In this document: positions 8,197 to 26,496 of the stretch, piece by piece | Numbering within the stretch: position 1 is the stretch's first letter | How the letters are laid out: every line of letters begins with the position of its first letter | Notes under the pieces: model-generated | The model's input: the letters and a program-made list of their open reading frames with translations, nothing else | Database searches by the model: none | What the model was told of the DNA's origin: nothing | Position numbers and translations under genes: made by a program | Origin: an uncultured delta proteobacterium | GTDB taxonomy: Bacteria; Desulfobacterota; Syntrophia; Syntrophales; UBA2185 | NCBI GenBank assembly: GCA_963729715.1 | Contig: CAVSPA010000006.1 | Coordinates: 64,001 to 128,000 of the forward strand | Direction: 5' to 3' | DNA: 64,000 nucleotides

Positions 8197-9666
8197 ATGA
8201 AGGCAAAACTGATAGACCAAAAGGGGGCCTTAGATTTTTGTGCGAAAGAAGGGGAACTTATCACCATTTCCAAAGAGGTGGATCCTGTGTACGAAATAGC
8301 GGGCATCACGAAGAGCTTTGATGGAGGTCCAATGGTCCTCTTCGAAAATATCAAGGGGTATCCGAAATGGAAGGCCGTGACGAACATTTTCGCAAATCGC
8401 GATCGGGTGGCCAGGTATTTTGGGACAACCAAGCAAGAGCTTCCCAAGCGGATTCTGGACGCAGCGAGGAATCCCATCCAGCCGAAATTGGTGACACAGG
8501 CGCCGTGCCAGGAAAATGTCATCACTAAGGACATCGATGTCCTGAACTTCCTGCCGGTGATTACGCACACGAAATTGGATATCGGTCCCGTTATTTCCGG
8601 TGGTGTAGTGATGATCAGTGTTCCCAAGGAGATGGGCGGAGGAGAGCAGTCCTTTAATCTTTCTTTCCATCGCATGAATCCGAGCCTGGGAAAAGACTGG
8701 ATTAGTATGGCAACGTTGTACAGCCGCCACTTCCTCGAAGTGCTGTATCATCATAAGTCGAAGAAGCAGGAGTACCCCGTTACGATTAACATCGGCATGT
8801 CTCCGGCATTAAGTGTGGTCGCTTCCGGCGGCGACTTCCCGCAAATCCGCCCCATTGGGACTGATGACCTGGGCATGGCCGGGAACCTGCAAGGGCAGGC
8901 CGTTGAGTACTGCAAGGCGAAGACCGTCGACGCCTACGCCCTGGCCCACGCAGATATCGTCCTCGAAGGAAAGGTGATTTATACTGAAAAGATAACCGAA
9001 GAACTTCCCTCCAAGGCGAAGGGACCGGGGAAGAGTTATTTCTTCCCTGAACAACTTGGCTACGAAGGTCTGGCAGCCGCGGGCTTCAAGATTCAGATTT
9101 CGGCCATTACCTACAGGAATAGTCCCTGTTACTTCACCCCTCTGGCCGATGCCTATGAGACAAATAACCTGCAGGTACTCATCTCGGAAGCGAGCATCTA
9201 CAATACCTGCAAGATGACGGCCCCGAACATCTTCACGAACTGTCATGTCCTGGACTGTATGAAGGGACATATGGGGGTGGTTATCCAGTGCCGTGTGCCC
9301 CATGAGCAAGAACAGGGAATCTCGCAAAATCTGATCGGCGCAGCCTTTGGGGCAGTCAGGAACCTTAATTTCGTGATAGCCGTCGATGAGGACGTAGATA
9401 TCTATGATCCTTCGGATGTCATTTGGGCGATGGTGAGGAGGACACGCGCTGCCGAGGACGTCAATATCATAAAGGGGGCAGGCATAGGCAATAACTTCGC
9501 AAAGTGGTCCGTTGACACAACTGTTCCTGTTGCAGAAAAATATCGGGCATTGAGACCCAAATTCGAGCCCATGGATCTAGGCAAGTGGCTGACCCCGGAA
9601 GAGGTCGCGAGAGGGCTCGCCCTGATGGACGACGGAGCAAAAAGTATCGCGAGGAGACGGGTGTAA
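8197..9666 (+). CDS. UbiD-family prFMN-dependent (de)carboxylase, copy 1 (AroY/LpdC-like features)
   Basis: EVDPVYEI, LFENIKGY, NLSFHR, ADIVLEG, FPEQLGY, VDEDVDIYD..DVIWA, DTTVP. Confidence 0.9.
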   Translation: MKAKLIDQKGALDFCAKEGELITISKEVDPVYEIAGITKSFDGGPMVLFENIKGYPKWKAVTNIFANRDRVARYFGTTKQELPKRILDAARNPIQPKLVTQAPCQENVITKDIDVLNFLPVITHTKLDIGPVISGGVVMISVPKEMGGGEQSFNLSFHRMNPSLGKDWISMATLYSRHFLEVLYHHKSKKQEYPVTINIGMSPALSVVASGGDFPQIRPIGTDDLGMAGNLQGQAVEYCKAKTVDAYALAHADIVLEGKVIYTEKITEELPSKAKGPGKSYFFPEQLGYEGLAAAGFKIQISAITYRNSPCYFTPLADAYETNNLQVLISEASIYNTCKMTAPNIFTNCHVLDCMKGHMGVVIQCRVPHEQEQGISQNLIGAAFGAVRNLNFVIAVDEDVDIYDPSDVIWAMVRRTRAAEDVNIIKGAGIGNNFAKWSVDTTVPVAEKYRALRPKFEPMDLGKWLTPEEVARGLALMDDGAKSIARRRV

Positions 9667-9698
9667 AGAAGGAATACGAGAAATAGAGGAGATTATTT

Positions 9699-11827: not shown

Positions 11828-11914
11828 ATGAAAGCGTCCACGTCGGCGCTAAAATGAGATGACATTCTTATCGAAAGATTTATACAGAAAGTTACATGCA
11901 AGGAGGACCATACG

Positions 11915-13315
11915 ATGAACCAAGGTCTGCGAGCGTACATAGAACACTTGGAAAGGGATATGCCGTCCCATGTCATCAGGATAAAGAAGGAGGTTTCACC
12001 TGAGTTTGAAATCCCAGCCATCCTGCAACAGGTGGAGTCGAGAAAAAAACAGCCTGTTTTGATTTTCGAGAAGGTGCGGAACCTAAACGGATCAATCTCA
12101 AAGCTGCCGGTGGTGATCAATCTTTTTGGCTCTAGGGAGAGGCTTGCAGATGCTATCGGGTCTACGGTTCAGAGGCTTCCCCTGGACTATATCGAGAAAG
12201 AGAAGCCTGTGCCTCCGGTCGTAATCGATAAGTCCAAAGCGATGGTCAAAGGCGTTATCCAGAAAGGCGATGATGTAGATTTGTATGAACTGCCGATCGT
12301 GACTCATCATGAAATGGATTTAGGGCCATACTTCACCAGCCCCAGCGTCTGGATAAAAGACCCGGAGACAGGATGGGTCAATTGCGCAATCATCAGGATC
12401 TATGTCGCAGGCCCCAAGAGCCTTGTCGTAAATTTCAACGCGGCGCGTCACACAAATTATGTCTTCCAGAAATACAAGGCCCTTAAACGCAACATTCCTA
12501 TAATCATTATGATTGGACATCATCCTGCTTTCTATATGGGGGCGCAAACGAAGATCTTCACGGATGAACCGCAGATAATCGGCGGTATCATAGGCGAACC
12601 CGTCGAGCTGACCCCTTCCGAAACTTGGGGGAAGGATATGCTCGTTCCAGCACAGGCGGAAATCGTCGTAGAAGCCGAAATGTCCTACGAGCAGGTTGAT
12701 ATCGAGGCGCCCTTCGGCGAATATACCCAGTATTACGGCGGCCAGAGGCTAAACCCCGTGACGTCGGTGAAAGCGATAACGCGAAGGAAAGACGCCTTCT
12801 ATCTCGACATCATGCCGGGCCATGCGGATCACCTCCTACTTGACGCACCGATGATCGAGGCTTATCTTTATAACAGAATCAGGGCGGTGGTGCCCGGGGT
12901 TGTGGGGGTACACGTACCTGTCTCAGGGACAGCGAGGCTCCACGCGTATATCCAGATCCGGAAGTCCAACGATGGAGAGCCTAAGACCGCCATAGCAACG
13001 GCCCTTAGCTCCGATTACCGGATAAAACATGTTGTTGTTGTGGATGATGACGTCAATATCTTTGATGATGAGCATGTGCTCTGGGCGATCGCTACACGAT
13101 CACAGTGGGACAAGGACCTTGTGGTCATCCCCGGCATGATGGGCACGAGGTTAGACCCGTCGGGCAATGACATCTTGACGACAAAGGGCGGGATTGATGC
13201 GACCAAGCCTGTCGATCCCCGCGGCTTTGCCAAAAGGCTCTGCATACCTGAATCGGTGATGTCCAGAATAAGGCTGGAGGATTTCCTGGAGCCGGATGTC
13301 CTGAGACAGTTTTAG
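11915..13315 (+). CDS. UbiD-family prFMN-dependent (de)carboxylase, copy 2
   Basis: LPIVTHHEMDLGPY, VNCAIIR, EAPFGEYTQYY (Glu/Glu pair), VVDDDVNI, WAIATR, LDPS, IDATKP. Confidence 0.92.
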   Translation: MNQGLRAYIEHLERDMPSHVIRIKKEVSPEFEIPAILQQVESRKKQPVLIFEKVRNLNGSISKLPVVINLFGSRERLADAIGSTVQRLPLDYIEKEKPVPPVVIDKSKAMVKGVIQKGDDVDLYELPIVTHHEMDLGPYFTSPSVWIKDPETGWVNCAIIRIYVAGPKSLVVNFNAARHTNYVFQKYKALKRNIPIIIMIGHHPAFYMGAQTKIFTDEPQIIGGIIGEPVELTPSETWGKDMLVPAQAEIVVEAEMSYEQVDIEAPFGEYTQYYGGQRLNPVTSVKAITRRKDAFYLDIMPGHADHLLLDAPMIEAYLYNRIRAVVPGVVGVHVPVSGTARLHAYIQIRKSNDGEPKTAIATALSSDYRIKHVVVVDDDVNIFDDEHVLWAIATRSQWDKDLVVIPGMMGTRLDPSGNDILTTKGGIDATKPVDPRGFAKRLCIPESVMSRIRLEDFLEPDVLRQF

Positions 13316-13330
13316 ATAAAGGAGATTACC

Positions 13331-13504
13331 ATGGCAAAAGTGCATTATATAGAGTGTGCGTTGTGCGGAAAGGAATATTATCTGGACAGGATTCTCTCGG
13401 AGGTCGTTGAAGTAAACCCCAAGCAAAAGCTCAAGTGTCCATTTTGCAAGAAAGAATTTCACCTGGACATGAAACGCAAGCAGGGGAAGGACGCGCGACC
13501 CTGA
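13331..13504 (+). CDS. 57-aa zinc-ribbon protein (missed by the ORF track)
   Basis: RBS AAGGAG before ATG. Translation MAKVHYIECALCGKEYYLDRILSEVVEVNPKQKLKCPFCKKEFHLDMKRKQGKDARP* has two CxxC pairs. Confidence 0.85.
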   Translation: MAKVHYIECALCGKEYYLDRILSEVVEVNPKQKLKCPFCKKEFHLDMKRKQGKDARP

Positions 13505-13570: not shown

Positions 13571-15595
13571 ATGAAAAAGGTTATAACGAATTCACATTTC
13601 ATTTTGGAAAAATGTGTCGGCTGCAAAACATGCACCCATGTTTGCCCGACGAAGGCCTACACCCCATCCATAAGCCGGCCGCTGGAGAAGATCAAGGTCT
13701 CTCCTTGTACCGTTCAATGTCCGATTGGAAACGACATCGAAGGGTTTAATTATCTGATCGGACAGAAGAAATACCTTGAGGCTTATGATTTGCTCCGAGA
13801 GACAAACCCGCTTCCCGGTGCTACGGGCCGGGTCTGTCATCATCCCTGCGAAAAAGAGTGCAACCGGATCGAATTTGACGAACGCGTGTCGATCAAGTCC
13901 GTAGAGCGTTTTATTGCCGATACTGCCATGAAGATGGGCTATAAGCCGGTCAAGCCAAAGGTGGTCCGGATGGAGACTGTCGCCGTGGTGGGATCGGGAC
14001 CGGCAGGTCTCTCCTGCGCCTTCCACTTGTGCCGGATGGGTTACCGTGTCACTCTTTTCGAGGGTGCTGAGAAGGCAGGCGGCATGATGCGTTACGGTAT
14101 CCCTGAATATCGGCTGCCGAAGCAGGTCCTGGATAACGAGATCAGATATATCGAAGAGTCAGGGGTCAGTATCAAGACGAATACGCCTGTAAAGAACGCT
14201 GAAGAGCTCTTTAAGCAGGGATACAAGGCGGTCTTTGTCGCAACAGGTTCATGGGCAAGTCATAAGGTGGGCGTTCCTGGGGAAGAGACCAAGGGGGTCT
14301 TGTATTCGGTCGATTTCCTGAGGAGGGCGAACTCCGGGGAAAAGGTGAAAATGGGGGACTGCGTGGCGGTCATCGGCGGCGGCAATGTGGCCATCGATTC
14401 TGCCAGGCTTTCCCGGCGACTCGGGGCCAAGGAGGTTCACCTGATCTGCCTGGAGTCTTGCGACCTGACCTGCAAAGACAGGATGCCGGCCCAGGATGTG
14501 GAGATCGAACAGGCCGAAGGGGAAGGGGTTATCGTCCATCCCAACCTGGGGGTCAGAAAGATATTGGCCGATCGGGGCAAAATCGTGGGTTTGGAAACGA
14601 TCCAGTGTACGAGCGTCATTAATGAGCGGGGAAGATTCGCGCCGGAGTTTGGAGATGGTGCTGCCCCAACCATCGCGGCCGATATGGTGATCGTCGCGAT
14701 CGGTCAGAGACCGGACGATAAAGATTTTGTCGAGCTGGAAAGAAACCCCTCCAAAACAATCAAGATCGACGATATGACTTTCGAGACCAATATCAAAGGC
14801 ATTTTTGCCGGAGGGGATGCAACCAAGGGGGCAGGCACCGTATCCGAGGCAATCGGTGAGGGTAAAAAAGTGGCTTTGGCCATCCATCGTTTCCTCGAAA
14901 AGGGGGATGCGCGCCAGGAGATGGCCGCGCGCGAGGTCGTGACTTATGAAGAGATGAATCGCGATTACTTCTATCCGGCCGCGAGGAACGAGACCGGTCA
15001 TCTCGATCTGGGGCAGGCGGTCCGCTCTTTTGAAGAGGTCAGCCTCGGCTATCAGGAGGACCAGGCCGTGAACGAGGCACAAAGGTGTTTCGGATGCGCC
15101 GCACCGCCTACTTACACGTTCGCAGAGTGCAAAGGCTGTTTGAACTGCGTGGACCGATGTCCTGTATTCGCGATCACCATCGAACCGATACAGGAGCCTT
15201 ATACCGTAGCCGTCGACGCCAGCCAGTTCGATCAAGAAGAGATCATGCGCATCTGCAAGAAGACGCGTATCCATCCGAAGCAGATCATCTGTTACTGCAA
15301 CGGGACACGCGCTGAAGAGGTCGTTGCCGCCATTATGAAAGGAGCCAAAACGCCTGACGACATCTCCCGGATGACAGGAGCCCGCACCGGTTGCGCCGTC
15401 CTTTGCATCCAGTCGATCGTCAAACTTCTGGAGGTGTCCGGATTCCCGGTCACGGTGGGGAGCACACACCAGACCTATGGAAAGACCTTCACCCTGTGGG
15501 ATCTGGACCCCGAACTGAAGAAGAAGCATGAGGCACGGGGATATCATTTTGATGATGACATGAAACTAATCGAAACTGTTTTCGAGAGTAAGTGA
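13571..15595 (+). CDS. Fe-S flavoprotein: ferredoxin-like 4Fe-4S motifs + GltD/NfnB-type FAD/NAD(P) oxidoreductase + C-terminal BFD-like [2Fe-2S] domain
   Basis: CVGCKTCTHVCP; PCTVQCP/GRVCHHPCE..C; GSGPAG; GGGNVAID; AGGD; CKGCLNCVDRCP; ICYC...GC.VLC. Confidence 0.85.
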   Translation: MKKVITNSHFILEKCVGCKTCTHVCPTKAYTPSISRPLEKIKVSPCTVQCPIGNDIEGFNYLIGQKKYLEAYDLLRETNPLPGATGRVCHHPCEKECNRIEFDERVSIKSVERFIADTAMKMGYKPVKPKVVRMETVAVVGSGPAGLSCAFHLCRMGYRVTLFEGAEKAGGMMRYGIPEYRLPKQVLDNEIRYIEESGVSIKTNTPVKNAEELFKQGYKAVFVATGSWASHKVGVPGEETKGVLYSVDFLRRANSGEKVKMGDCVAVIGGGNVAIDSARLSRRLGAKEVHLICLESCDLTCKDRMPAQDVEIEQAEGEGVIVHPNLGVRKILADRGKIVGLETIQCTSVINERGRFAPEFGDGAAPTIAADMVIVAIGQRPDDKDFVELERNPSKTIKIDDMTFETNIKGIFAGGDATKGAGTVSEAIGEGKKVALAIHRFLEKGDARQEMAAREVVTYEEMNRDYFYPAARNETGHLDLGQAVRSFEEVSLGYQEDQAVNEAQRCFGCAAPPTYTFAECKGCLNCVDRCPVFAITIEPIQEPYTVAVDASQFDQEEIMRICKKTRIHPKQIICYCNGTRAEEVVAAIMKGAKTPDDISRMTGARTGCAVLCIQSIVKLLEVSGFPVTVGSTHQTYGKTFTLWDLDPELKKKHEARGYHFDDDMKLIETVFESK

Positions 15596-15605: not shown

Positions 15606-17066
15606 ATGGGAAAGACACTAAAACCTGCCGCTCCTAACCGATCACAATACTGCATTAATCCAGAGCTGTTGAAGATGAGAGCCGCTGATTTGCCAGGGAT
15701 GACCTCCCTGACCATTCGGGAACTCATTCCCTCTATGCCCAATCCCATTTTCCCGAGCGAGCATGGGGTTGAAGCGATCCGTCAGGCAACCCGGGATTCT
15801 TTGAACGGGGTTGATATGACCAAGATCAAGCCCGGGGATTCTGTCAACATCCTGGCATCGCACCATGGTTTCACGCTCTATGGCGGGACTGCCTACGCGG
15901 AGATGATCAAGGTGACACGCGATGTGATCATGGAGAGGACCGGTACCAAGGATATACGGCTGCGCGCCGGTGTGGGGCTGCGATTCAGGGAGACAGAGGA
16001 GTACATCAAGAAATTCGGCCTTGATCAGCATTTCAACGGGAAGGCCATGGGGATGACGCCCATTGATGAAGGTTTTCCCATCCAGACAGAGTTCGGCACC
16101 CTTTTTGGACTCAAGAGGGCCTATGATGCGAAGTGGGTTGTCCACGCCCACAACAATGATTTGAGGGAGCTCCACAACCATCGGATGATCAACCGGATCA
16201 TCAAGCCTTTTGCAATGTCGTATGCGAGGATGGAGACGCGTTCCACGTATCACCAGAACTTCGGCCCGAGATCGTCGAACATCATTCCCAGGGCGGTTTT
16301 CACGTCGGACTTCGTCCAGAGCAAGTTTGTCTTTTCCGTCATGCTGAACGTTGCACCCAGCGGGATCGCCGAGGTCAGCGCGAACAACGATCTGCTGAAG
16401 CAGGATGAATATATGGCGGTCGATACGCTGAGATGGTACGGAAAACTGCTTACCTTGCTGGAACACATCGACCAATGCAATGTGATCGTCGACGGTCCCA
16501 TGCCCATCGGGTACATGAGAGCGGGCGGGATCGTGTACGACAATTTTGCAGGGCTCTCTGTGGATGAGTTCGATCTGGATCAGGGATTCCCTCCGTTTTC
16601 ACGCTACACGGAGATGTATTTTGACGAACTGGGCCATCGTCTTATCGAGAATATCCCTCCTTTGAATCCAGCCGTCAAATGGATGATCAACAACTACTGT
16701 ATGAGCGGATTGCCATGCACCTTCTTTTCCCAGCATGTTCCAACCGTTGTGGTGGGTCGCGACATGGTGAACCATATGAATGCGGACCCGCAGAATCCCC
16801 AGTACATGAAATATGCGGTGACGACGGAAGGGCTGCAGGAGGCGGTCGACTTCGTGACGCGGGTCAGCGGTACCTCGAATATCCTCGTATTTGACGGTGC
16901 GGCAAACGGATTCAACATGACTGAGCCCCTGGCCGATCTGCTGAGGTCTAAGGGCTCGGGCATTGAAGAGAAGGTGGAGGGGGAGTTGCTTCCGAAGTGG
17001 TGTCGTCAGCGCGGTCTAAGTGCCGCGGTGCTGAAAGACAAACAGGTAAAGGTTAGCAGGCAGTAG
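15606..17066 (+). CDS. Divergent LarA (lactate racemase)-fold protein, putative nickel-pincer nucleotide enzyme
   Basis: H190-x9-K200-x15-H216 matches the recalled LarA H174/K184/H200 spacing; IKPGDSVNIL N-domain; C-terminal LQEAV...ILVFDG. Alignment by eye. Confidence 0.6.
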   Translation: MGKTLKPAAPNRSQYCINPELLKMRAADLPGMTSLTIRELIPSMPNPIFPSEHGVEAIRQATRDSLNGVDMTKIKPGDSVNILASHHGFTLYGGTAYAEMIKVTRDVIMERTGTKDIRLRAGVGLRFRETEEYIKKFGLDQHFNGKAMGMTPIDEGFPIQTEFGTLFGLKRAYDAKWVVHAHNNDLRELHNHRMINRIIKPFAMSYARMETRSTYHQNFGPRSSNIIPRAVFTSDFVQSKFVFSVMLNVAPSGIAEVSANNDLLKQDEYMAVDTLRWYGKLLTLLEHIDQCNVIVDGPMPIGYMRAGGIVYDNFAGLSVDEFDLDQGFPPFSRYTEMYFDELGHRLIENIPPLNPAVKWMINNYCMSGLPCTFFSQHVPTVVVGRDMVNHMNADPQNPQYMKYAVTTEGLQEAVDFVTRVSGTSNILVFDGAANGFNMTEPLADLLRSKGSGIEEKVEGELLPKWCRQRGLSAAVLKDKQVKVSRQ

Positions 17067-17233
17067 GCTCTGCATCCTGAATAGATCGACTCAAGACAGC
17101 GACTTGAGAGGGATGCGCCAGCGGGGCATCCAATCCCTATTGAGGGGAGATATTTCACTGCCGGCGGTTTTTCGAGAAGGGGATTCCTGCCCGGCCATCA
17201 GGCAGGCTCAAATAAGAAATGGAGTGGAAGCGA

Positions 17234-17782
17234 ATGTACGAAATCAGGTTTCATGGAAGAGGAGGACAGGGCGCGGTCGTAGCGTCGACGGTTCTCGCCT
17301 CCGCCTTCTTCAAGGAAAAGAAATTCGTTCAGGCTTTCCCGAACTTCGGGGCTGAGAGAAGAGGTGCGCCCGTAGTCGCCTTTACGCGCGTGAGCGACCA
17401 TGAGATCAGGGAGAGATTCGGAATCTATGAGCCGGACTGCCTGATCATTCTTGACTCAAGCCTGACCAGAAGGAAGGGGATTGTCCAGGGTCTGAAGGAA
17501 GGCCACTGGATCATCATCAACAGCGATAAGAAACCGGAGGACTATGTTTTTCTGGGCCCCTATCTCGTGGCGACACTGAATGCAAACACCATCGCACAGG
17601 AGCACGGCCTGGGGAGCTCATCCGTTCCGATCGTCAATACGACGATCCTCGGTGCGTTCTCAAGGGCAACCGGGATGGTCGCTATAGAATCGATCATGGA
17701 TGCCGTGCGCGAGAATGTACCTTCACATCCCGAGGATAATGCCAAGGCCGCCCGGGAGGCTTATGAGAAGGTGGTTTTTTAA
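17234..17782 (+). CDS. porC: 2-oxoacid:ferredoxin oxidoreductase gamma subunit (set 1)
   Basis: EIRFHGRGGQGAV, FGAERRGAPV, IVNTTILGA. Confidence 0.88.
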   Translation: MYEIRFHGRGGQGAVVASTVLASAFFKEKKFVQAFPNFGAERRGAPVVAFTRVSDHEIRERFGIYEPDCLIILDSSLTRRKGIVQGLKEGHWIIINSDKKPEDYVFLGPYLVATLNANTIAQEHGLGSSSVPIVNTTILGAFSRATGMVAIESIMDAVRENVPSHPEDNAKAAREAYEKVVF

Positions 17783-17814
17783 GTAGAGTAATCTTGCATC
17801 AAGAGGTTGATTAA

Positions 17815-18099
17815 ATGAAAAAGCGATATAGCCTGAAATCCTTAGATACGTTACCGATCACAGCCATCTCCTTCCTCACCACAGAGGGAAACGAAACCGG
17901 CGAGTGGCGCTCACAAAGACCAATCCTCGATCGGGAAAAGTGTAATCGCTGCGGCCTTTGCTGGATGTACTGTCCGGATAACGCGATCCATGCGGAGGGC
18001 GGTGCATTTCAAATCTCCTACACCTATTGCAAGGGTTGCGGAATCTGCGCGAAAGAGTGTCCCAGAGGAGCCATTTTGATTGAGAAGGAAGAAAGATGA
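17815..18099 (+). CDS. porD: 2-oxoacid:ferredoxin oxidoreductase delta subunit (set 1)
   Basis: TGEWRSQRP, CNRCGLCWMYCPD, YCKGCGICAKECP. Confidence 0.88.
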   Translation: MKKRYSLKSLDTLPITAISFLTTEGNETGEWRSQRPILDREKCNRCGLCWMYCPDNAIHAEGGAFQISYTYCKGCGICAKECPRGAILIEKEER

Positions 18100-19241
18100 A
18101 GAAAGTTATTTCTGCCAACCAGGCCGTCTCGTATGCTGTTCTGGCCGCTAAGGCCCAAGTCATTGCAGCGTATCCCATCACCCCTCAGTCTTCCATAGTG
18201 GAGATGTTGTCAGGGTTCTGCGCAACGGGAGCCCTTCAGGCCAAGTTCATCAACGTGGAGTCGGAGCATTCCGCCATGGCCGCGTGCATCTCCGCGTCAG
18301 TGATGGGGGCCAGAACATTCACGGCAACAAGCTCCCAGGGGCTGGCGTTGATGCATGAGTTGCTTCATTATGCCTCAGGGTTGCGGCTCCCGATAGTCAT
18401 GGCAAACGTCAACAGGGCGCTGGCAAGCCCTTTCAATCTGAAGGCGGATCTGAGCGACAGCCTCTCCCAGCGGGATACGGGTTGGCTGCAGTTCTACTGT
18501 GAGAGCGGCCAGGAGGTCTTTGACACAATCATTCAGTCCTACAAGATATCGGAAAAATTACTGCTTCCTGTTATGGTTAATCTGGAAGGTTTCATCCTTT
18601 CTCACACCTACGAGATTGTCGACCTTCCGGAGCAGAGCCAGATCGACCTCTTCCTCCCGCCCGCGCCCGCCCGGGAGTGCCTTGACGTTGATAATCCCTG
18701 CATGTTCGGGTCAACTACGGATTACTATATCAATTTCCGGTACAAGATGCATCAGGACATGGAGGAGGCCAAGACCTTATGCAGTGAAATCGATGCCGAA
18801 TTTAAGAAGGCGTTTGGCCGGGATTATGGTCTCGTCTCAACCTATCTCTGTGAAGATGCCGACCTTATATTGGTTACAGCAGGAACAATCGCCGGCACAT
18901 GCCGCGTCGTTGCCGACCGCTGCCGGGCCAGGGGAATGAAGGTGGGCGTCCTCCGGATCCGCATGGTTCGTCCTTTCCCTGGAAAGCAGATCTGTGAGCC
19001 GCTTCGAAAAGCAAAGAAGGTGGCTGTGATCGACCGTGACTTCTCTCCCGGATGCGGAGGGATTTTTGCACAGGAGGTCAAGGCCTCCCTCCAGGGGATC
19101 AATTGCGGTCTGCCTGTTTATGAGTTTATCGCCGGCTTGGGAGGCAAGGATGTGACGGATAAAGACATCGAATTAATCATTGAACAAACGCATAATATGC
19201 CGAACCGAGGAGAAAGCACATGGATAGGCCTGCTCAAATAA
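18096..19241 (+). CDS. porA: 2-oxoacid:ferredoxin oxidoreductase alpha subunit (set 1)
   Basis: AYPITPQS, ESEHSAM, TATSSQGL, NRA, GLGGKD. Confidence 0.88.
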   Translation: MKKVISANQAVSYAVLAAKAQVIAAYPITPQSSIVEMLSGFCATGALQAKFINVESEHSAMAACISASVMGARTFTATSSQGLALMHELLHYASGLRLPIVMANVNRALASPFNLKADLSDSLSQRDTGWLQFYCESGQEVFDTIIQSYKISEKLLLPVMVNLEGFILSHTYEIVDLPEQSQIDLFLPPAPARECLDVDNPCMFGSTTDYYINFRYKMHQDMEEAKTLCSEIDAEFKKAFGRDYGLVSTYLCEDADLILVTAGTIAGTCRVVADRCRARGMKVGVLRIRMVRPFPGKQICEPLRKAKKVAVIDRDFSPGCGGIFAQEVKASLQGINCGLPVYEFIAGLGGKDVTDKDIELIIEQTHNMPNRGESTWIGLLK

Positions 19242-20110
19242 AATTCCCCATACCCGAAGAGGAGCTTGTTTACTCAGGACATACGGCCTGCCCCGGCTGT
19301 GGAGCCGCGCTGGCTATGAAATATGTATTGAAGGGACTGGGTCCGAGAACCATTATTGTCATTCCGCCCTCGTGCATGGGGACCATTGCCGCGGGTTTTC
19401 CTTTTTCTTCACTCAAGATTCCCGTCCTCAGGATTCCTTTTGAATCGACGGCCATAACGGCTTCAGGAATCCGGGCGGCCCTGGATGTCATGGGCAAGGA
19501 AGACATACATGTCCTCGCGTGGGCCGGCGACGGAGGCACGTTTGACATCGGCCTTCAGGCCCTGTCGGGATCGGCCGAGAGAAATGACAATATCATATAC
19601 GTCTGTTATGATAACGAAGGTTATATGAATACGGGGATTCAGCGGAGTTCTTCAACCCCTGCGGGCGCCTGGACGACTACCACTCCCGCACCCTTCGTGA
19701 AAGATACGCCCAAGAAGGACATCGTCCGCATCATGGCCGCCCACAACATCCCGTATATTGCGACGGCCTCCATCGGATATCCCGCCGACCTGATCAGGAA
19801 GGTGAAGAAAGCGAAGGAGATAGGGGGCACGAAGTTCATATTGATCTTTTCCCCCTGCCCAACGGGGTGGCGCTATTCTCCGGAGATGACGATAAGGCTT
19901 GCCAAGCTGGCCACCGAGACAGGAATATTTCCCCTTTATGAAATTGAAAACGGGGAGAAGTACGCCCTGAGTTCCAAACGGTCGGAAAAGCCGCTCCAGG
20001 ATTATTTTGCCCTCCAGGGACGCTTTCGCAATCTCACGAAAGAGAACCTCCAGCAGTTTGAAGAAAGAGTGGAGAAAGAACGGGAATATCTGAAGCGTCT
20101 GGCAGGATAG
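19220..20110 (+). CDS. porB: 2-oxoacid:ferredoxin oxidoreductase beta (TPP-binding) subunit (set 1)
   Basis: ACPGCG, GDGGTFDIG, YDNEGYMNTGIQRS, PCPTGW. Confidence 0.88.
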   Translation: MDRPAQIKFPIPEEELVYSGHTACPGCGAALAMKYVLKGLGPRTIIVIPPSCMGTIAAGFPFSSLKIPVLRIPFESTAITASGIRAALDVMGKEDIHVLAWAGDGGTFDIGLQALSGSAERNDNIIYVCYDNEGYMNTGIQRSSSTPAGAWTTTTPAPFVKDTPKKDIVRIMAAHNIPYIATASIGYPADLIRKVKKAKEIGGTKFILIFSPCPTGWRYSPEMTIRLAKLATETGIFPLYEIENGEKYALSSKRSEKPLQDYFALQGRFRNLTKENLQQFEERVEKEREYLKRLAG

Positions 20111-20290: not shown

Positions 20291-21121
20291 ATGCTACCTG
20301 AACGGGATATCCGTGATATCATCTTCGCCGGCATCCGGGAAAAGAAGTACATTGCCCACATCTCCGCCCAGACAGAGGGCGTCCTTTCCGGAATCGAATG
20401 GCTGAAAAAGGCCTGCAAGAATCTGGGAATCCATTTGAAGAAATGCAAGAAAAACGGGGCGAGGGTCAGACTGGAGGAGGTCATCGCCGTTCTCACGGGA
20501 AGCGCCAAGCAGCTGGCCGCGGGTGAAGAGCAGCTTATCGGCTGGATCTCAAAAGCCTCCGGTATTGCCACTGCCGCCCGGAAGGCAAAAAAGGCTGCCG
20601 GAAAGAACCTGAAGGTGGTATGCGGGGCATGGAAGAAGATGCCGCTGCCGATCAAAGATCTGGTCCGGCAGGCGATCGCCGACGGAGGCATTCTGTACCG
20701 CATGGCAGATATACCCTTCCTTTACCTGGACAAGAACTACGTCAAGACATTGGGCGGGGTCGCAAAGACGATGCAATCCGTGAAAGGCCTGAAGGGACAC
20801 ACCCTGGTGATACAGCTGAAAGCGGTGGGACATAACCTCCTCCGGGAAGCAATCGTCGCAGCAGAGGGCGGCGGCAACATCATCATGATCGATACAGGCA
20901 GGAAAGAGGATATCGTAAAGATCGATTCCGGGTTGCGGGCAAGGGGTCTGAGAGACCGCGTGCAAATCGCTTTTGCAGGAAACATCGGAATCGGCGATCT
21001 CCAGGAACTAAAGAAGCTGCCGGTAGAGATCGTTGACATCGGACAGGCCGTTGTCGATGCGCCGCTTCTCGACATGAGAATGGATATTACGGCAGAGACG
21101 GGGGAGAAGATTGGAGCTTGA
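20291..21121 (+). CDS. Divergent quinolinate phosphoribosyltransferase (NadC/ModD)-like protein
   Basis: GVLSG, E..IGWISKASGIATA, KK.P, GG..YR, KNY..LGG, IMIDT, AGNI, IDIG...D fold motifs; canonical TRKT and HR are altered. Confidence 0.75.
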   Translation: MLPERDIRDIIFAGIREKKYIAHISAQTEGVLSGIEWLKKACKNLGIHLKKCKKNGARVRLEEVIAVLTGSAKQLAAGEEQLIGWISKASGIATAARKAKKAAGKNLKVVCGAWKKMPLPIKDLVRQAIADGGILYRMADIPFLYLDKNYVKTLGGVAKTMQSVKGLKGHTLVIQLKAVGHNLLREAIVAAEGGGNIIMIDTGRKEDIVKIDSGLRARGLRDRVQIAFAGNIGIGDLQELKKLPVEIVDIGQAVVDAPLLDMRMDITAETGEKIGA

Positions 21122-22001
21122 ACTTTTTGAAAAGACGGAGATCTGGATAAGTCCCATCCATATCGTGGATGTCGACCTGGGATTGATCGCAGAGAAGTTT
21201 GCCGGGATTCTGCACCTCGACAAGAAGGAGATCATGGTCGTCGATGTGCGTGAGGAACTCATCACCCTTGACGTCCTGAAGAAATCCGTCAGGGCCGAGG
21301 ATATTATCGGCAAGAAGGACGCCCTGCTCAAGGCGCTGGCGGCGATCCCCGGAGTCAGTCTCACCCCCGAGACAAGTCTCCACTCCGATGGCATCCTCGG
21401 ATTGATTGCCGTCGAAGATCAAGCGATGGCGGGTGAAATCCTAGGAGGGATGGCGCGGATGCAGCGCGAAATCTCGGAGCGGATACGGAAGAGGGCAATA
21501 GTCTTTCCATCCGGGTTCGAGGTCCGGAGGGGCATGATTCAGGACACCAACAGCCCCTACATCACAGGCCGGCTGACGAAGGAAGGATACAGCGTCACAG
21601 TAGGCGATACGCTCGAAGACGATCTGGAGAGTATTGTCCCGGTACTTCGCCGGACCCTGAGCGAGGGCTATGGACTGATCATCACGACCGGCGGAGTAGG
21701 GGCAGAGGATAAGGACAGGATGGTTGAGGCCCTTCTGAGGATCGACCCTTCGGCGTCCACGCCGTACATAATCCATTACGAAAAAGGAAAAGGGCGTCAC
21801 GAAAAAGACGGGGTCAGGATCGGGGTCGCTTACCTGCATCCCTCTTACGTCATTGCCCTGCCGGGACCGCACGAGGAAGTAAAGGCCGGTATGGATGTCA
21901 TCATCGAGGGATTAAAGGGGGGAATGGGAAAAGAGGATATTGCTTCCGCCCTTGCAAACAAATATGTCGGTCGCCTGAAGCGGCTTCACCATTTGAAGTG
22001 A
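21111..22001 (+). CDS. Molybdopterin-binding-domain (MogA/CinA N-terminal, COG1058-like) protein with unknown N-terminal domain
   Basis: SG.EV..G.IQDTNS, EDD..SI, LIITTGGVG..DKD, IALPGP. TTG start overlaps the upstream gene. Confidence 0.75.
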   Translation: MELELFEKTEIWISPIHIVDVDLGLIAEKFAGILHLDKKEIMVVDVREELITLDVLKKSVRAEDIIGKKDALLKALAAIPGVSLTPETSLHSDGILGLIAVEDQAMAGEILGGMARMQREISERIRKRAIVFPSGFEVRRGMIQDTNSPYITGRLTKEGYSVTVGDTLEDDLESIVPVLRRTLSEGYGLIITTGGVGAEDKDRMVEALLRIDPSASTPYIIHYEKGKGRHEKDGVRIGVAYLHPSYVIALPGPHEEVKAGMDVIIEGLKGGMGKEDIASALANKYVGRLKRLHHLK

Positions 22002-22094
22002 CACTGAAGATCAGTAACAACTCCACCCCTGCGCAAAGTGCCGGGCCTGATGAAGAGATCAGTTTAAGTCAATAAAGTGAGGGGAAGAAAGAAG

Positions 22095-22655
22095 ATGCTT
22101 GAAATCCGCTTTCATGGTCGCGGAGGCGGGGGTACCGTCGTGCTGGCCACCTTACTCGCCAAGGCTTTTTTTCAGGCCGGTTACCAGGTCCAGAGCTTCC
22201 CCTTTTTCGGTGTTGAACGGCGAGGGGCCCCGGTAGAGGCGTATCTCCGTCTCGCGAGCAAGAAGATTTTAGCGAGAACCAGTGTGACCACGCCGGATCA
22301 TGTAGTTGTTCAGGATCAGAGCCTCATTCAAGACATCGGCGTCATGCAAGGACTCAAGCCGGGTGGTTGGATTTTGCTTAACTGCCCCTTACACCCTTCC
22401 GATATGAGCCTCTTTACAAACTACAAGGTTGCCATTGTGGATGCAACCAGCCTTGCGCTCAAAAACAGGATAGGAAGCAGGACGCACCCCATTGTCAATA
22501 CGGCCATGATAGGTGCTTTTGCGCGCATGATGGAGGCACCGCCGATGGATACCGTCATTGCAGCGATAAGGAAAGAAGTGCCGTCCGACCCTGATAGAAA
22601 TGTCGCCGCTGCAGAAGAGGCGTATCGTGAAGTCCGTTTATTACAGGAAACATAA
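22095..22655 (+). CDS. porC: 2-oxoacid:acceptor oxidoreductase gamma subunit (set 2)
   Basis: MLEIRFHGRGGGG, FGVERRGAPV, IVNTAMIGA. Confidence 0.85.
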   Translation: MLEIRFHGRGGGGTVVLATLLAKAFFQAGYQVQSFPFFGVERRGAPVEAYLRLASKKILARTSVTTPDHVVVQDQSLIQDIGVMQGLKPGGWILLNCPLHPSDMSLFTNYKVAIVDATSLALKNRIGSRTHPIVNTAMIGAFARMMEAPPMDTVIAAIRKEVPSDPDRNVAAAEEAYREVRLLQET

Positions 22656-22668
22656 ATAAGGCGAAGGC

Positions 22669-24414
22669 ATGAAGGTCGCAATAATACCAAAACCGTTTGT
22701 AGCCATAACTTATGAAACGACGGAAAGCAACAAGACGGGCTCTTGGCGCTTTCTCAAACCGCGTTACCAGGATAAGACATCGCCCTGCAGCACCGGTTGT
22801 CCGGCCGGCGAAGATATCGGCATGATTGAGATGCTCGCAAAGCAGGGATTGTTCAAGGAGGCGTGGGAAGCGATCCTCCGGGAAAATCCTTTACCGGGCG
22901 TATGCGGGCGCGTCTGCTTTCACCCTTGCGAGAGCGCTTGCAACAGAAAGGATTTCGATTCGCCCATTGCCATTCACACCCTTGAACGGTTTCTGGCCGA
23001 TGCGGCTGCCGGTTGCGATCTTACGACAACACTGGAAAAGCTCCCCCAAAAGAAACAAAGGATAGCCATCATCGGCGCTGGTCCGGCGGGACTTTCCGCC
23101 GCATGGTTTCTGTCAGTGCTTGGTTATCCCTGTGATATTTTTGAGGCACTTCCTGAAGCAGGTGGAATCTTACGCTGGGGGATACCGGAGTATCGTTTAC
23201 CCGCGGCAGTTCTTCAATCCGAGATTGCCCGGGTTGAAGGCTTGGGAGTGCGCATGTATACGAATAAAGCCGTGGCGTCTGATACATTTGATGAACTTAG
23301 GAAAAGTTACGGCGCCGTTTTTCTCGGCTGCGGCCATGCGCATGGCACGCCGCTCGGATTGACGGGAGAGACCCCGGAAACTGTTGAGGACGGCCTGGAT
23401 TTTTTGAGAAGAGTGAGGCAGGGTGAAATGCCTTTATGTGACGGTTTCTCTGTTGTCATCGGGGGCGGCAACACGGCTGTTGACGTTGCCAGAACCATCA
23501 CCAGGTTTGGCGGCATTGCGGCCATCTTGTACCGCAGGCGCCGTCAGGATATGCCGGCATTCGGAGATGAAATAGAGATGGCGCTCGAGGAAGGTGTGGA
23601 ACTGGAAGAGCTTGTAGCCCCGTCAGCTATTGAACATCATAACGGCCGGCTCAGACTGCTTTTGCGGAAAATGAAAATCAAAGGTCAGGATAAAGATGGT
23701 CGTGGACGGATAGTATTCGACGGGAAAAAGACCGTTAAGAAAGTTGTCGATCATATATTTGCGGCCACGGGCGCCAACGCGGCTGAGTCCTGGCATAGCC
23801 CTCCTTTGGCGCAACGGGAAGTTATCGGCTTCAATAACTGTGTTCTATTGTTGGAGGACAGCGGCGCGCCTGTAATCTACGGCGGGGATCTGACCAATGA
23901 AACAAAAAATGTCGCACAGGCCATAGCCTCCGGCAAGCAGGCAGCGATGGTACTGGATACCTATTTCGAAAGAGGAATCGATGAGATTAAACCCCGGCTT
24001 GAGGCATGCATGGTCGGAAACGGGCCGGCACTTTCCATGGAAGCATATCTCGGGGAAGCGCGCGGAGGCCGCAGTTCCCATATTGTCCAATACGGAGAAA
24101 TCAATACAGACTATTTCCATAGTGAAGATAGGGCGGCTCAACTCCGCCTTTCCGCGGAAGATCGCAGCCGCTCGTTTAATGAAATCGACTTGGGCATACC
24201 CGCTGAGGCGGCCGTCCGGGAGGCCGGGCGCTGCTTCAATTGCGGCCTGTGTGACCAGTGTGACAACTGTTATGTATTTTGCCCGGATGCTGCCGTTATC
24301 AGAAGTAAGAACATGGAAGACCGGCATATCAACTATGATTACTGCAAAGGATGCGGCGTATGCGCTACGGAGTGTCCTCGCTATGCCGTAATCATGGGTG
24401 AGGAGAGACTATGA
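22669..24414 (+). CDS. PorD(delta)-GltD fusion: FAD/NAD(P) oxidoreductase inside the delta ferredoxin subunit
   Basis: N-terminal NKTGSWR (PorD motif); GltD core (GAGPAG, GGGNTAVD, YRR); C-terminal CDQCDNC..FCPD and YDYCKGCGVCATECP. Confidence 0.85.
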   Translation: MKVAIIPKPFVAITYETTESNKTGSWRFLKPRYQDKTSPCSTGCPAGEDIGMIEMLAKQGLFKEAWEAILRENPLPGVCGRVCFHPCESACNRKDFDSPIAIHTLERFLADAAAGCDLTTTLEKLPQKKQRIAIIGAGPAGLSAAWFLSVLGYPCDIFEALPEAGGILRWGIPEYRLPAAVLQSEIARVEGLGVRMYTNKAVASDTFDELRKSYGAVFLGCGHAHGTPLGLTGETPETVEDGLDFLRRVRQGEMPLCDGFSVVIGGGNTAVDVARTITRFGGIAAILYRRRRQDMPAFGDEIEMALEEGVELEELVAPSAIEHHNGRLRLLLRKMKIKGQDKDGRGRIVFDGKKTVKKVVDHIFAATGANAAESWHSPPLAQREVIGFNNCVLLLEDSGAPVIYGGDLTNETKNVAQAIASGKQAAMVLDTYFERGIDEIKPRLEACMVGNGPALSMEAYLGEARGGRSSHIVQYGEINTDYFHSEDRAAQLRLSAEDRSRSFNEIDLGIPAEAAVREAGRCFNCGLCDQCDNCYVFCPDAAVIRSKNMEDRHINYDYCKGCGVCATECPRYAVIMGEERL

Positions 24415-25586
24415 AGCAGGTGATGGAAGGCAACTCCGCCGTTGCGGAGGCGGTCCGGCTGGCTAGGGTTCAGGTAATCTCTGCATATCCTATCACACCC
24501 CAATCGCATATCGTGGAGGTTCTGTCGGATTACTGTGCCAGCGGCAAGATGGATGCCCGTTACTTAAGGGTTGAGAGCGAGCACTCCTGTCTTGCGAGCC
24601 TTGTCGGAGCCGCATGCGGCGGCGTCAGGACCTTTACGGCGACCTCGTCAGCCGGCCTCGCCTATATGCACGAAATGCTGCATTGGACGGCAGGATCACG
24701 CCTGCCAATCGTTATGGCAGAGGTGAACCGGGCAGTAGGCGCACCCTGGAATATCTGGTCAGACCAAACCGACAGCCTGTCCCAGCGCGATACGGGCTGG
24801 ATGCAGTTCTACTGTGAAGACGGGCAGGAGGTTTTTGACACAACCCTCCAGGCATTCCGTTTGGCGGAATGGGTTAACCTTCCCGTCATGGTCGTCACGG
24901 AGGGTTTCCTACTCTCACATACCTATGAACCAGTGGATATTCCCGAGCAGGAAGAAGTTGATCGTTTTCTTCCTCCCTACAATCCCGCGTTCAGTGTCGA
25001 TACCAAGAATCCGTTTACATTTAATTCCATCGCCTCTCCTTCAATCTATATGGAAATTCGTCATGACAACGCAGCGGCCATGGATCAGGTGCTGGAGCGC
25101 TTTGATGACGTTGAGAAGGAATTTGAAACCTTATTTAACCGCAGATATGGCGCGATCGAGGCGGTCAATTGTGACGATGCAGAGATTATTCTCGTCACAT
25201 CAGGAACTATTACGAGCACCGGCCGTCTGCTTCTAGAAGACCTGCGAGACAGGGGTGAGAAAGTCGGTCTCCTGAAAATGAAAATGTTTCGGCCATTCCC
25301 TGTGGAATTGGTTTGCGAGGCGCTTAAGCCTGCAAAAAAGGTTGCTGTTATTGACCGGAATTTTTCATCCGGCGCAGGGGGGATATTCCTGCAGGAAGTT
25401 CGGGCGGCGCTCTGCAATAGAGAGGACCGTCCCCTTGTCTTTGGTTATGTTGTTGGCCTCGGTGGAAGGGACGTCACGAAGGCTGTTCTCGAAGAGATCT
25501 ATGAGATGACCAAGAACAACGATATCCCATCGGATAAGAGCATTTGGATAGGACTGAAAGAGGTGAAGCATGCGATTGGACGCTGA
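24411..25586 (+). CDS. porA: 2-oxoacid:acceptor oxidoreductase alpha subunit (set 2)
   Basis: AYPITPQS, ESEHS, TATSSAGL, GLGGRD. Confidence 0.85.
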   Translation: MKQVMEGNSAVAEAVRLARVQVISAYPITPQSHIVEVLSDYCASGKMDARYLRVESEHSCLASLVGAACGGVRTFTATSSAGLAYMHEMLHWTAGSRLPIVMAEVNRAVGAPWNIWSDQTDSLSQRDTGWMQFYCEDGQEVFDTTLQAFRLAEWVNLPVMVVTEGFLLSHTYEPVDIPEQEEVDRFLPPYNPAFSVDTKNPFTFNSIASPSIYMEIRHDNAAAMDQVLERFDDVEKEFETLFNRRYGAIEAVNCDDAEIILVTSGTITSTGRLLLEDLRDRGEKVGLLKMKMFRPFPVELVCEALKPAKKVAVIDRNFSSGAGGIFLQEVRAALCNREDRPLVFGYVVGLGGRDVTKAVLEEIYEMTKNNDIPSDKSIWIGLKEVKHAIGR

Positions 25587-26496
25587 CGATCGTGAATTCA
25601 TGTGCTCAGGGCATGCGGCTTGTCCGGGCTGCGGCGCAGTTATTGCTCTGCGCATTTTTACAAAGGCCATGGGAGAAAATACCATCCTGGTTATTCCGGC
25701 CAGTTGCACAGGTGTCATCGTCGGTGTTTACCCCCAGTCTGTCATGAGAATTCCCGTGGTCCACGCCCCCATGCCGGCCGGCGCCTCCGTGGCTTCAGGG
25801 CTGCGTGCAGCCCTTGATATGAGGCATGACACGGATACCACGGTTGTTGCATGGGCCGGTGACGGCGGCACCTTCGATATCGGCTTTCAGGCCCTGAGCG
25901 GCGCCGTCGAAAGGAACGAGGATTTTATTTATGTCTGCTATGACAATGAAGCCTATATGAATACCGGCATCCAGCGCAGCTCTTCAACGCCGTATGGGGC
26001 GTGGACGACTACCACACCGGGACAAGATTGGAAAAAACTGCGGAAGAAGAATATCGTTGAAGCCTTGGTGGCGCACCGGATCCCCTATGTGGCGACGGCA
26101 AATATAGCATTTCCGGAGGACCTTGTTCGAAAGGTGAAGAAAGCCAAAGCCGTCAGGGGTTCGAGGTTTTTGCATATCTTCGCGAGCTGCCCCCCGGGAT
26201 GGCGCATCCCCTCCGAGATATCAGTAAAAACGGCCCGGATGGCTGTTCAGACAAATATCTTTCCTCTATACGAGGTAGAAGACGGCGTCCGCTACACCAT
26301 CAATTACAAGGACAGGCAGCGCCCTGTGCAGGACTATTTCGGGGTTCAGGGACGCTTCAGTCATCTGACTGCTGAAGACTTCGATCAGATCCAAAAAATG
26401 GTTGAAAAAGATTGGGCATTGTTACTGAGAAAGGCCGGGGAGCAAGCCGCCGACGCATGCATCCAATCATCGAGCGCTCACGAGGTGAAAGTATAA
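25570..26496 (+). CDS. porB: 2-oxoacid:acceptor oxidoreductase beta subunit (set 2)
   Basis: ACPGCG, GDGGTFDIG, YDNEAYMNTGIQRS, CPPGW. Confidence 0.85.
   Translation: MRLDADDREFMCSGHAACPGCGAVIALRIFTKAMGENTILVIPASCTGVIVGVYPQSVMRIPVVHAPMPAGASVASGLRAALDMRHDTDTTVVAWAGDGGTFDIGFQALSGAVERNEDFIYVCYDNEAYMNTGIQRSSSTPYGAWTTTTPGQDWKKLRKKNIVEALVAHRIPYVATANIAFPEDLVRKVKKAKAVRGSRFLHIFASCPPGWRIPSEISVKTARMAVQTNIFPLYEVEDGVRYTINYKDRQRPVQDYFGVQGRFSHLTAEDFDQIQKMVEKDWALLLRKAGEQAADACIQSSSAHEVKV

Follow-up and report, generated by a model that had tools for sequence, protein, structure and literature searches.

We analyzed a window of 64,000 nucleotides (nt) from an uncultured delta proteobacterium (contig CAVSPA010000006.1, positions 64,001-128,000; genes are named by their start position in the window) and propose, with a rough probability of 45%, that its gene block at 8197-26496 belongs to an anaerobic catabolic cluster. 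In this cluster, a predicted LarA-fold pincer enzyme (the 15606 protein), fed from NAD(P)H through an Fe-S flavoprotein (the 13571 protein), would convert a furan-type dicarboxylate by reductive ring opening into a six-carbon 2-oxo-diacid, which would then become an acyl-coenzyme A (CoA). Open reading frame (ORF), Pfam and NCBIfam searches found 17 genes in the block, all intact and on the plus strand, with the identities, order and shared direction that an initial annotation, made from the letters alone, had given them. Of 246 matches to the family in species genomes, the best 80 were fetched, and 80 metagenomic loci were added; the resulting 160 loci include duplicates (L126 = L003), and neighbor counts out of 80 were obtained by tblastn (L and G labels denote compared loci and genomes, G000 being the window's own genome). 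The gene-neighborhood check suggested in the initial annotation had a divided outcome, as the block is a mosaic and not a single conserved unit: the Fe-S flavoprotein, the 15606 protein, POR set 1 and the NadC-like/COG1058-like pair form a conserved core that co-occurs across loci, whereas UbiD1, UbiD2, the ADP-forming synthetase and POR set 2 were seen with the core in close relatives only.

The 15606 protein had no match in Pfam, NCBIfam or PDB in sequence and profile searches, the Lar_N and NCBIfam LarA models included, and its look-alikes in the Atlas carry the automatic name "LarA-like N-terminal domain". Relatives made up 1208 of the 7999 candidates scored, the closest named ones being Syntrophales/Syntrophaceae assemblies with 90-96% identity in 15606. 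When its structure model (mean predicted local distance difference test [pLDDT], 82) was searched with Foldseek, LarA structures occupied about the top 15 rows (E, 3e-8 to 4e-4; best 9q3k, 3.4e-8, and 5huq, 1.1e-7), and VIA ranked five LarA chains at Z 18.1-15.3, with the next fold at 6.8 (best match: root mean square deviation, 4.5; 342 aligned residues). A LarA two-domain fold is predicted from this model, bearing out the initial call. In the accessible text on Isosphaera LarA, the cofactor is attached through Lys183 and nickel is bound by His199, with His107 as a catalytic residue and Asp70/Arg73 holding the ribose and phosphate (PMC12611868). By motif comparison, the 15606 protein retains the H-10-K-16-H spacing of the genome's own LarA homologue as H190/K200/H216, together with its K-x2-A-x3-A-x2-[DE]-T-x3-[FY]-H pattern, so that K200 and H216, 16 residues apart, would correspond to the cofactor-linking lysine and the nickel-ligand histidine. 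H190, ten residues ahead of K200, would be the second catalytic histidine (His174), and it sits in a low-confidence region of the model and varies in distant homologues. The first catalytic histidine (His108 of L. plantarum LarA) is absent, ATGLH reading AGVGLR126, and the Asp plus Arg/Lys motif for the cofactor ribose and phosphate is replaced (ICDITR to LASHHGF). H190, K200, H216 and R126 are each invariant in 158 of 158 tabulated loci.

The likeness to LarA racemases and epimerases that use the nickel-pincer nucleotide (NPN) (5HUQ, 9EIA, 9Q3J, 9Q3K, 7S91) therefore covers the predicted fold, the Lys/His spacing, the second histidine and, within the family, lar genes nearby, but identity is 10-14%, and the 15606 protein has an arginine for the first histidine, an altered nucleotide motif and an obligate Fe-S partner. 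LarA homologues are known as racemases and epimerases only, as far as the accessible text of PMC13524815 goes; the 15606 protein is a predicted pincer-type enzyme, yet would stand outside the two-histidine racemases. The same accessible text describes NphT, an NPMN hydride transferase with an aldo-keto-reductase fold, and an NPAD ornithine cyclodeaminase, which show that pincer cofactors can transfer hydride intermolecularly and exist in modified form, although these enzymes have other folds, act on sugar or amino-acid substrates, and have no Fe-S input described there (PMC13524815). larB, larC or larE lies within 10 kb of the 15606-family gene in 21/80 loci, directly behind the NadC-like gene in L118; the window's genome has a larE-larB-larC set (Table 1) and also encodes an ordinary LarA homologue that could use the LarB/C/E products. 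This larE-larB-larC operon lies near a Cbi/Nik-type metal importer (L084:4564-11845, G000:C7), and the ordinary homologue adjoins a LIV-type importer (L085:6969-8261). We consider it well probable, with good confidence, that the 15606 protein is an Fe-S-coupled pincer-type redox enzyme.

The family splits into two clades. In a tree of 47 proteins, built by a quick method with Shimodaira-Hasegawa-like approximate likelihood ratio support only, the window's protein falls in a 12-row clade with support 99, and residue 191 is Asn in 35 of the 160 loci (the window clade), Phe in 123 and Tyr in 2. The link to furans comes from the larger sister clade. Neighbors among the 80 genomic loci of the whole family were a COG1058-like gene (67), a NadC-like gene (66), an MhpD-like hydratase (63), MhpE (51), MhpF (50), BenE (36), a metal-less M24 hydrolase (29) and an orthologue of the decarboxylase HmfF (10), and cultured carriers include Moorella, Clostridium, Sporomusa and Desulfofundulus strains. 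The MhpD-like hydratase is found in all 64 larger-clade loci with 5 kb on both sides, and its best model in four of four tested was 2-oxopent-4-enoate hydratase (TIGR03220), with scores below the cut-off. Wherever a locus is long enough, a 2-oxo-acid module lies downstream of the LarA-like gene, be it MhpD-like, POR, E1/E2/E3 (L115) or an HpcH aldolase (L146, L147). The UbiD adjoining the LarA-like gene in L031 matches PDB 6h6v at 631 bits, and that of G138, whose cluster reads IclR-FeS-LarA-like-NadC-MhpD-MhpF-MhpE ... AOR-FeADH-UbiD, is identical over 447 residues to this structure, which is named HmfF (PMC8988006). Across 162 genomes of one class, the HmfF orthologue occurs in 10 and the LarA-like gene in 16, with all 10 nested inside the 16; seven of the 10 carry both genes within 12-21 kb, and the NadC-like gene occurs in exactly the same 16. 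HmfF lies behind an AOR-like or other oxidoreductase and an iron-type alcohol dehydrogenase (Fe-ADH) in nine of 10 loci, the contig of the tenth (L105) starting at the Fe-ADH; this module would oxidize 5-hydroxymethylfurfural (HMF) to the diacid.

Formula balance connects these modules: furoic acid (C5H4O3) plus 2H equals C5H6O3, that is, 2-oxopent-4-enoic acid, the substrate of MhpD, and no other conserved enzyme in the sister-clade loci bridges furoate, the HmfF product, and 2-oxopent-4-enoate. Because of this balance, the sister-clade enzyme is probably a ring-opening reductase that converts 2-furoate to 2-oxopent-4-enoate. The sister clade would share HmfF-type furandicarboxylate decarboxylation and a furan substrate with hmfABCDE/hmfFG of Cupriavidus basilensis. 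That aerobic Trudgill pathway proceeds through furoyl-CoA, C5 hydroxylation and lactone hydrolysis to 2-oxoglutarate in the accessible text of PMC6604932, whereas the route proposed here would be a CoA-independent reduction with C-O cleavage that yields an unsaturated 2-oxo acid. The anaerobic conversion of furfural to acetate by two Desulfovibrio strains is a phenotype that the sister clade would explain, with MhpD/E/F leading to pyruvate and acetyl-CoA; the accessible parts of two reviews (PMC3223595, PMC6604932) name neither genes nor enzymes for it. As side observations, an M24-fold protein without metal ligands (creatinase/ectoine-hydrolase-like; L010:9590-10696 and 28 other loci) tracks the MhpD clade, and subunits of the xanthine-dehydrogenase family, which could be aldehyde oxidoreductases or a furoyl-CoA-dehydrogenase-like enzyme, adjoin the sister-clade gene in L025, L032, L034 and L038.

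The window clade differs from its sister in both the predicted pocket and the lower pathway. G297, K/R305, D312, E321 and R333 accompany N191 in 34/34 covering loci, where the other clade has Phe, Phe, Ala, Leu and Trp; the window's protein itself has N191, G297, R305, D312, E321 and R333. By secondary structure, residues 297-313 may form the substrate-side loop of the LarA C-terminal domain, and a basic pocket is predicted for the window clade. MhpD is found in none of the 35 window-clade loci versus all 64 well-covered sister-clade loci, while POR set 1 (at least 45% identity) is present in 21 of the 25 window-clade loci with at least 1.5 kb downstream and in 0 of 123 other-clade loci; the two lower pathways are mutually exclusive. 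The alpha subunit of POR set 1 has Lys116 in 21/21 covered sequences, in a loop that we take to line the substrate pocket; this position is occupied by Trp in one pyruvate enzyme (9bt4), by Phe in another (6cin) and by Trp in POR set 2. In the beta subunit of set 1, Arg71 is invariant (19/19). These features predict that POR set 1 takes a 2-oxo-diacid. Since the 15606-clade enzyme and POR set 1 gained basic residues together, a second carboxylate on the substrate is suggested, and furan-2,5- and furan-2,4-dicarboxylate are examples of dicarboxylates that would fit; that a furan dicarboxylate is indeed the substrate of the window's enzyme has, in our estimate, somewhat less than an even chance. 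An earlier reading of our own, in which POR replaces MhpDEF on furoate, was dropped because of these pocket changes. The substrate, which the initial annotation held to be beyond what sequence could determine, is thereby narrowed to furan carboxylates for the family and to a dicarboxylate for the window clade.

Upstream genes vary among other members of the window clade, which carry tricarboxylate or tripartite ATP-independent periplasmic (TRAP) importers, amidases with short-chain dehydrogenases, or AOR; tricarboxylate (TctA) importers occur in 4/35 loci, a point in favor of a dicarboxylate substrate. In L137, a locus without POR, MaoC-type hydratases, a CoA transferase and an HMGL-like lyase lie upstream, a set that presumably resembles itaconate degradation. 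In L005, L006, L140 and L143, a carbon-nitrogen hydrolase, two short-chain dehydrogenases and a TRAP importer stand ahead of the core, which would fit an amide or formamide of a ring compound.

Electrons would be supplied through the 13571 protein, in which a GltD-like NAD(P)H flavoprotein interrupts the small 2x[4Fe-4S]+BFD partner typical of the family; residues 520-674 of the 13571 protein are 47% identical to the stand-alone Fe-S partner, which is present in 79/80 loci. Fusion to the GltD flavoprotein occurs in more than one lineage (the window clade, L037, L120 and L121), linking the partner to NAD(P)H, and is found in 24/24 window-clade loci with at least 1.5 kb upstream versus 4/106 other-clade loci. 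The 13571 protein is likely the electron donor to the 15606 protein. The fusions of the Fe-S and LarA-like proteins that seemed to occur in L078 and L079 are artifacts of ORF extension; therefore, no natural fusion supports binding between the two proteins. The direction of electron flow is not given by gene order, and the 15606 protein could instead be a pincer-dependent dehydrogenase of an open-chain 2-hydroxy-diacid that uses 13571 as its electron outlet to NAD(P)+ and delivers a 2-oxo acid to POR set 1, with no ring opened. Hydride abstraction from 2-hydroxy acids is known LarA chemistry (accessible text of PMC12611868), every downstream module takes a 2-oxo acid, and the genome's second copy of the gene adjoins a 2-hydroxyacid dehydrogenase and a dicarboxylate symporter. 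We regard this alternative as improbable, as the sister clade has nothing else between furoate and 2-oxopent-4-enoate, 2-hydroxypent-4-enoate has no evident source there, and the first catalytic histidine is Arg in all 158 loci. The 2-hydroxy/2-oxoacid redox role proposed in the initial annotation is accordingly kept as a rival, with the neighborhoods favoring reductive ring opening.

The NadC-like and COG1058-like genes occur together in 66/80 loci; in the window their reading frames overlap, and in L029 they form a fusion. The NadC-like protein scores 91 bits against the TIGR00078 cut-off of 198.4 and so falls outside NadC; its quinolinate motifs TRKT and HR read GAWKK and YR, a rebuilt base-binding site, and it keeps several residues on the phosphoribosyl pyrophosphate (PRPP) side. 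The C-terminal domain of the 21111 protein has a MogA/CinA-N fold (Foldseek top, 3kbq; VIA, Mog/MoaB Z 14.4-15.1 and 3kbq 13.9). A dinucleotide form of the pincer cofactor exists (accessible text of PMC13524815). Given this form and the changed ribose/phosphate motif of 15606, the pair may make or salvage a modified pincer nucleotide, which is the weakest step of our proposal. A molybdenum-cofactor role was disfavored, AOR occurring in 12/80 loci and the pair in 66/80.

The pair also suggests another assignment, in which the window clade performs the same reductive opening on a dicarboxylate with nitrogen or sulfur in the ring (pyrrole-, thiophene- or pyridine-dicarboxylate). The NadC-like enzyme would then ribosylate a ring nitrogen to give a pyridinium hydride acceptor, and the COG1058-like protein would recycle the nucleotide. 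HmfF also accepts pyrrole-2,5-dicarboxylate, the NadC-like gene tracks the core exactly (16/162 genomes) with its PRPP side kept and its quinolinate site changed, carbon-nitrogen hydrolases lie upstream in 4/35 window-clade loci, and the metal-less M24 hydrolase of 29/80 loci is a possible deaminase. However, the pair is equally present in the HmfF/AOR/Fe-ADH clade, where the furan formula fits exactly and ribosylation is needless; a six-membered ring would need further enzymes, absent from those loci, to reach 2-oxopent-4-enoate; and the block has no deaminase. A nitrogen or sulfur ring is, on this balance, unlikely.

Under the furan-dicarboxylate reading, the substrate would enter through the LIV-type ATP-binding cassette (ABC) system, whose gene identities were observed, and UbiD1/UbiD2, with ubiX, the LpdD-like chaperone and the zinc ribbon, would remove or attach a carboxyl group to yield the dicarboxylate of the core. 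Electrons would pass from NAD(P)H over flavin adenine dinucleotide, [4Fe-4S] and the BFD [2Fe-2S] cluster of 13571, domains that are all observed, and reload the pincer with hydride. On formula balance and general chemistry, the hydride would go to ring C5, the C5-O bond would break, and H190 would protonate the leaving oxygen; furan-2,5-dicarboxylate plus 2H would give 2-hydroxymuconate (4-oxalocrotonate) and furan-2,4-dicarboxylate plus 2H would give 4-methylene-2-oxoglutarate. POR set 1 would convert these into glutaconyl-CoA (2,5-isomer) or itaconyl-CoA (2,4-isomer) with CO2 and reduced ferredoxin, and POR set 2 and the ADP-forming synthetase may recover ATP from downstream pyruvate or acyl-CoA. 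A fuller version, to which we give only a tentative place with the odds leaning against it, takes the whole family as ferredoxin-wired nickel-pincer reductases that cleave a furan C-O bond, with the window branch acting on furan dicarboxylates fed by two new UbiDs and using a modified pincer nucleotide from the NadC-like/COG1058-like pair; the dicarboxylate would then be the monomer of polyethylene furanoate (PEF) or the 2,4-isomer left by methanofuran turnover.

Several observations weigh against the furan-dicarboxylate reading. The profile-profile comparison by hhalign of 15606 with nine LarA neighbors was not significant (probability, 0.6), the residue correspondences with LarA rest on motif spacing and secondary structure and not on superposition, and pLDDT is below 50 at residues 188-190 and 327-332. 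The cofactor may not be NPN, because the Asp/Arg pair for ribose and phosphate reads His-His-Gly-Phe; none of the 35 window-clade loci has a lar gene, and larC is uninformative at the genome level (136/162 genomes). The furan evidence comes from the sister clade, whose proteins are about 53% identical to those of the N191 clade, and its 162-genome counts come from related genomes and do not amount to a statistical test. None of the 35 window-clade loci has an HmfF orthologue; UbiD2, at 39% identity to HmfF orthologues that are themselves 50-86% alike, is below orthologue level, and it retains the HmfF pocket histidine and second arginine with Ile314 at the position of R304 (H296/R304/R331 being, we assume, the substrate-pocket residues of HmfF). 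In the window's genome, we found no Na+-decarboxylase beta subunit for an exit through glutaconyl-CoA, and the MaoC-type hydratases of L137 had no match there for one through itaconyl-CoA. A phosphoribosyltransferase also has no obvious job on an oxygen ring.

The accessory genes were the least conserved part of the block. UbiD1 adjoins the core in 7/35 and UbiD2 in 8/35 window-clade loci, nearly all of them 88-100% identical to the window, and POR set 2 is reduced to fragments in the close relatives L125 and L127. The full undescribed route suggested in the initial annotation stands as an uptake-to-acyl-CoA route built on a pincer-type enzyme that supplies a 2-oxo acid to POR, and falls as a block conserved throughout. 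UbiD1 and UbiD2 are the only UbiD genes found in the 3.76-Mb genome. The best PDB match of UbiD1 is phthaloyl-CoA decarboxylase (8oz5, 222 bits; next family, 164 bits), relative to which its C-terminal part is shorter and unmatched; CoA-activating enzymes adjoin it, and no relative above 42% was found in 400 other genomes of the phylum. The zinc-ribbon protein has two CxxC motifs and weak zinc-ribbon matches below cut-off, and could by analogy be a VdcD-like UbiD partner, as VdcD, the small subunit of the UbiD-type VdcCD, has two CxxC motifs (accessible text of PMC8379154). With 8OZ5, 6H6V and VdcCD, the window's UbiDs share the UbiD fold, catalytic motifs, a candidate zinc-ribbon partner and a nearby ubiX and LpdD-like gene, but neither is orthologous, and the pockets differ. 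The ADP-forming synthetase may draw ATP from the final acyl-CoA or activate a substrate for UbiD1. POR set 2 has a pyruvate-type pocket motif and a 66% paralogue at C4:175310-179731. Like PadEFGHI and archaeal-type PorABCD, the two POR sets are four-subunit 2-oxoacid oxidoreductases, one with a flavoprotein subunit, but all fall below the Pad (alpha, 291 and 298 vs 700; beta, 237 and 245 vs 700) and PorA/B equivalog cut-offs, and set 1 has its pocket-loop lysine.

This pattern could also mean that the block is a recent mosaic, in which a benzenoid acid is handled by the importer and the UbiD1-synthetase-UbiD2-zinc-ribbon module, through a phthalate-like route to an aroyl-CoA, with no chemical link to the core. 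Such a separation would agree with the nearest solved relative of UbiD1, with the variable upstream modules of the window clade, and with the restriction of the module to one genus among the samples searched (close UbiD2 homologues of at least 95% identity in 5 of 301 genomes of the order). It is made quite unlikely, in our judgment, by L007, which has an 80%-identical UbiD2 homologue ahead of the core together with a different transporter, by the gaps of just 15, 66 and 10 bases from UbiD2 to the 15606 gene, and by the genome having these two UbiDs alone, with the LpdD-like gene and ubiX heading the same run, ahead of the window's start. LpdD, whose fold is that of proteasome assembly chaperones, is a chaperone of reduced prenylated flavin mononucleotide (prFMNH2), and its gene is co-transcribed with that of a ubiX homologue (accessible text of PMC10865409).

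Table 1. Features of the gene run in the window and related genes of its genome (window positions unless a locus or contig is given).
Feature	Position	Strand	Basis or remark
LpdD-like gene and ubiX	L081:16621-17602		Directly before window start, preceding GntR; Pfam PAC_bac; ubiX above cut-off
GntR/FCD regulator	154..936	+	Pfam FCD and GntR
LIV-type ABC importer (two permeases, two ATPases, binding protein)	1074..7805	+	Pfam/NCBIfam
Binding protein of LIV-type importer	likely start 6483	+	Relatives of 440 aa
AMP-forming CoA ligase, within importer run	3042-4751	+	Pfam/NCBIfam
UbiD1, prFMN (de)carboxylase (accessory module)	8197..9666	+	Nearest solved relative phthaloyl-CoA decarboxylase
ADP-forming acyl-CoA synthetase alpha	9699-11123	+	Pfam/NCBIfam
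ADP-forming acyl-CoA synthetase beta	11120-11827	+	Pfam/NCBIfam
UbiD2	11915..13315	+	Nearest solved relative HmfF, non-orthologous
Zinc-ribbon protein (57 aa), two CxxC motifs	13331..13504	+	Motif reading
GltD-like Fe-S flavoprotein, 13571 protein (core)	13571..15595	+	Sequence comparison with stand-alone Fe-S partner
LarA-fold protein (486 aa), 15606 protein, predicted nickel-pincer enzyme (core)	15606..17066	+	Fold search
POR set 1, order gamma, delta, alpha, beta (core)	17219..20110	+	Clade conservation
NadC-like phosphoribosyltransferase (core)	20291..21121	+	Below nadC cut-off
N-terminal domain plus MogA/CinA-N (COG1058-like) domain (core)	21111..22001	+	Fold search
POR set 2, POR gamma, GltD-delta fusion, alpha, beta (accessory)	22077..26496	+	Pocket motif pyruvate-type
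larE-larB-larC	C7:337117-339814		All three above cut-off

Behind the block, window:26645-34304 holds unrelated housekeeping genes (DsbC, flavin reductase, DUF488, polA and the sirohaem-to-haem genes ahbA and ahbD). A promoter/terminator scan gave chance-level counts (15 vs 14.9; 14 vs 19.6). Short contigs of close relatives over the block occurred in four wetland RNA runs (e.g., 451 bases with 28 differences in 15606); these were kept out of the support because contigs cannot show transcription or an operon. The genome's second LarA-like copy, 49% identical and with a stand-alone Fe-S partner (L082:12587-18946; G000:C3:366586-372945), follows a gene for a beta-keto-acid cleavage enzyme, and a dicarboxylate symporter, CoA transferases and a 2-hydroxyacid dehydrogenase are encoded nearby. 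In this copy R333 is retained, but residues 191 and 305 are Y191 and T305, and a reverse-transcriptase-like ORF (430 aa, identified by eye) is inserted behind it. In the distant members L115, L116, L118 and L119 (40-45%), K200 and H216 are retained, as are the Fe-S partner and the COG1058-like gene, but H190 and the pocket are changed and the lower modules differ (E1/E2/E3 dehydrogenase; an HpaB/AbfD-family protein with racemase and lactonase-like genes); further substrates are likely for them. The window's genome also has nine full-length HpaB/AbfD-family paralogues and two partial matches at 11 places, and UbiD-rich genomes were encountered elsewhere (G005, 28 matches; G492, 53 candidates).

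As the initial annotation had supposed, we found no characterized cluster with this combination of genes. No description of the family or pathway was found in the literature covered, which took in few subscription papers and part of the supplement to PMC13524815, and the words "furan" and "ferredoxin" do not occur in the text of PMC11770544. The system is real and apparently undescribed. What is added here is that a neighboring UbiD is identical to the solved HmfF, that the genome counts are nested, and that the family splits into two clades in which pocket residues and lower pathway co-vary. In the accessible parts of PMC3223595 and PMC6604932, furan breakdown without oxygen is described as a phenotype of two strains, and an undiscovered pathway is expected and wanted for the oxygen-free detoxification of lignocellulose hydrolysates. 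Furan C-O reduction would be the missing step of anaerobic furfural- and HMF-type breakdown, and the family offers a named candidate for it. If this is true, nickel-pincer chemistry would extend from isomerization and hydride shuttling to Fe-S-fed reductase chemistry, the window branch would be the first anaerobic sink for furan dicarboxylates, and four pocket residues together with a swapped lower pathway would have retargeted the enzyme.

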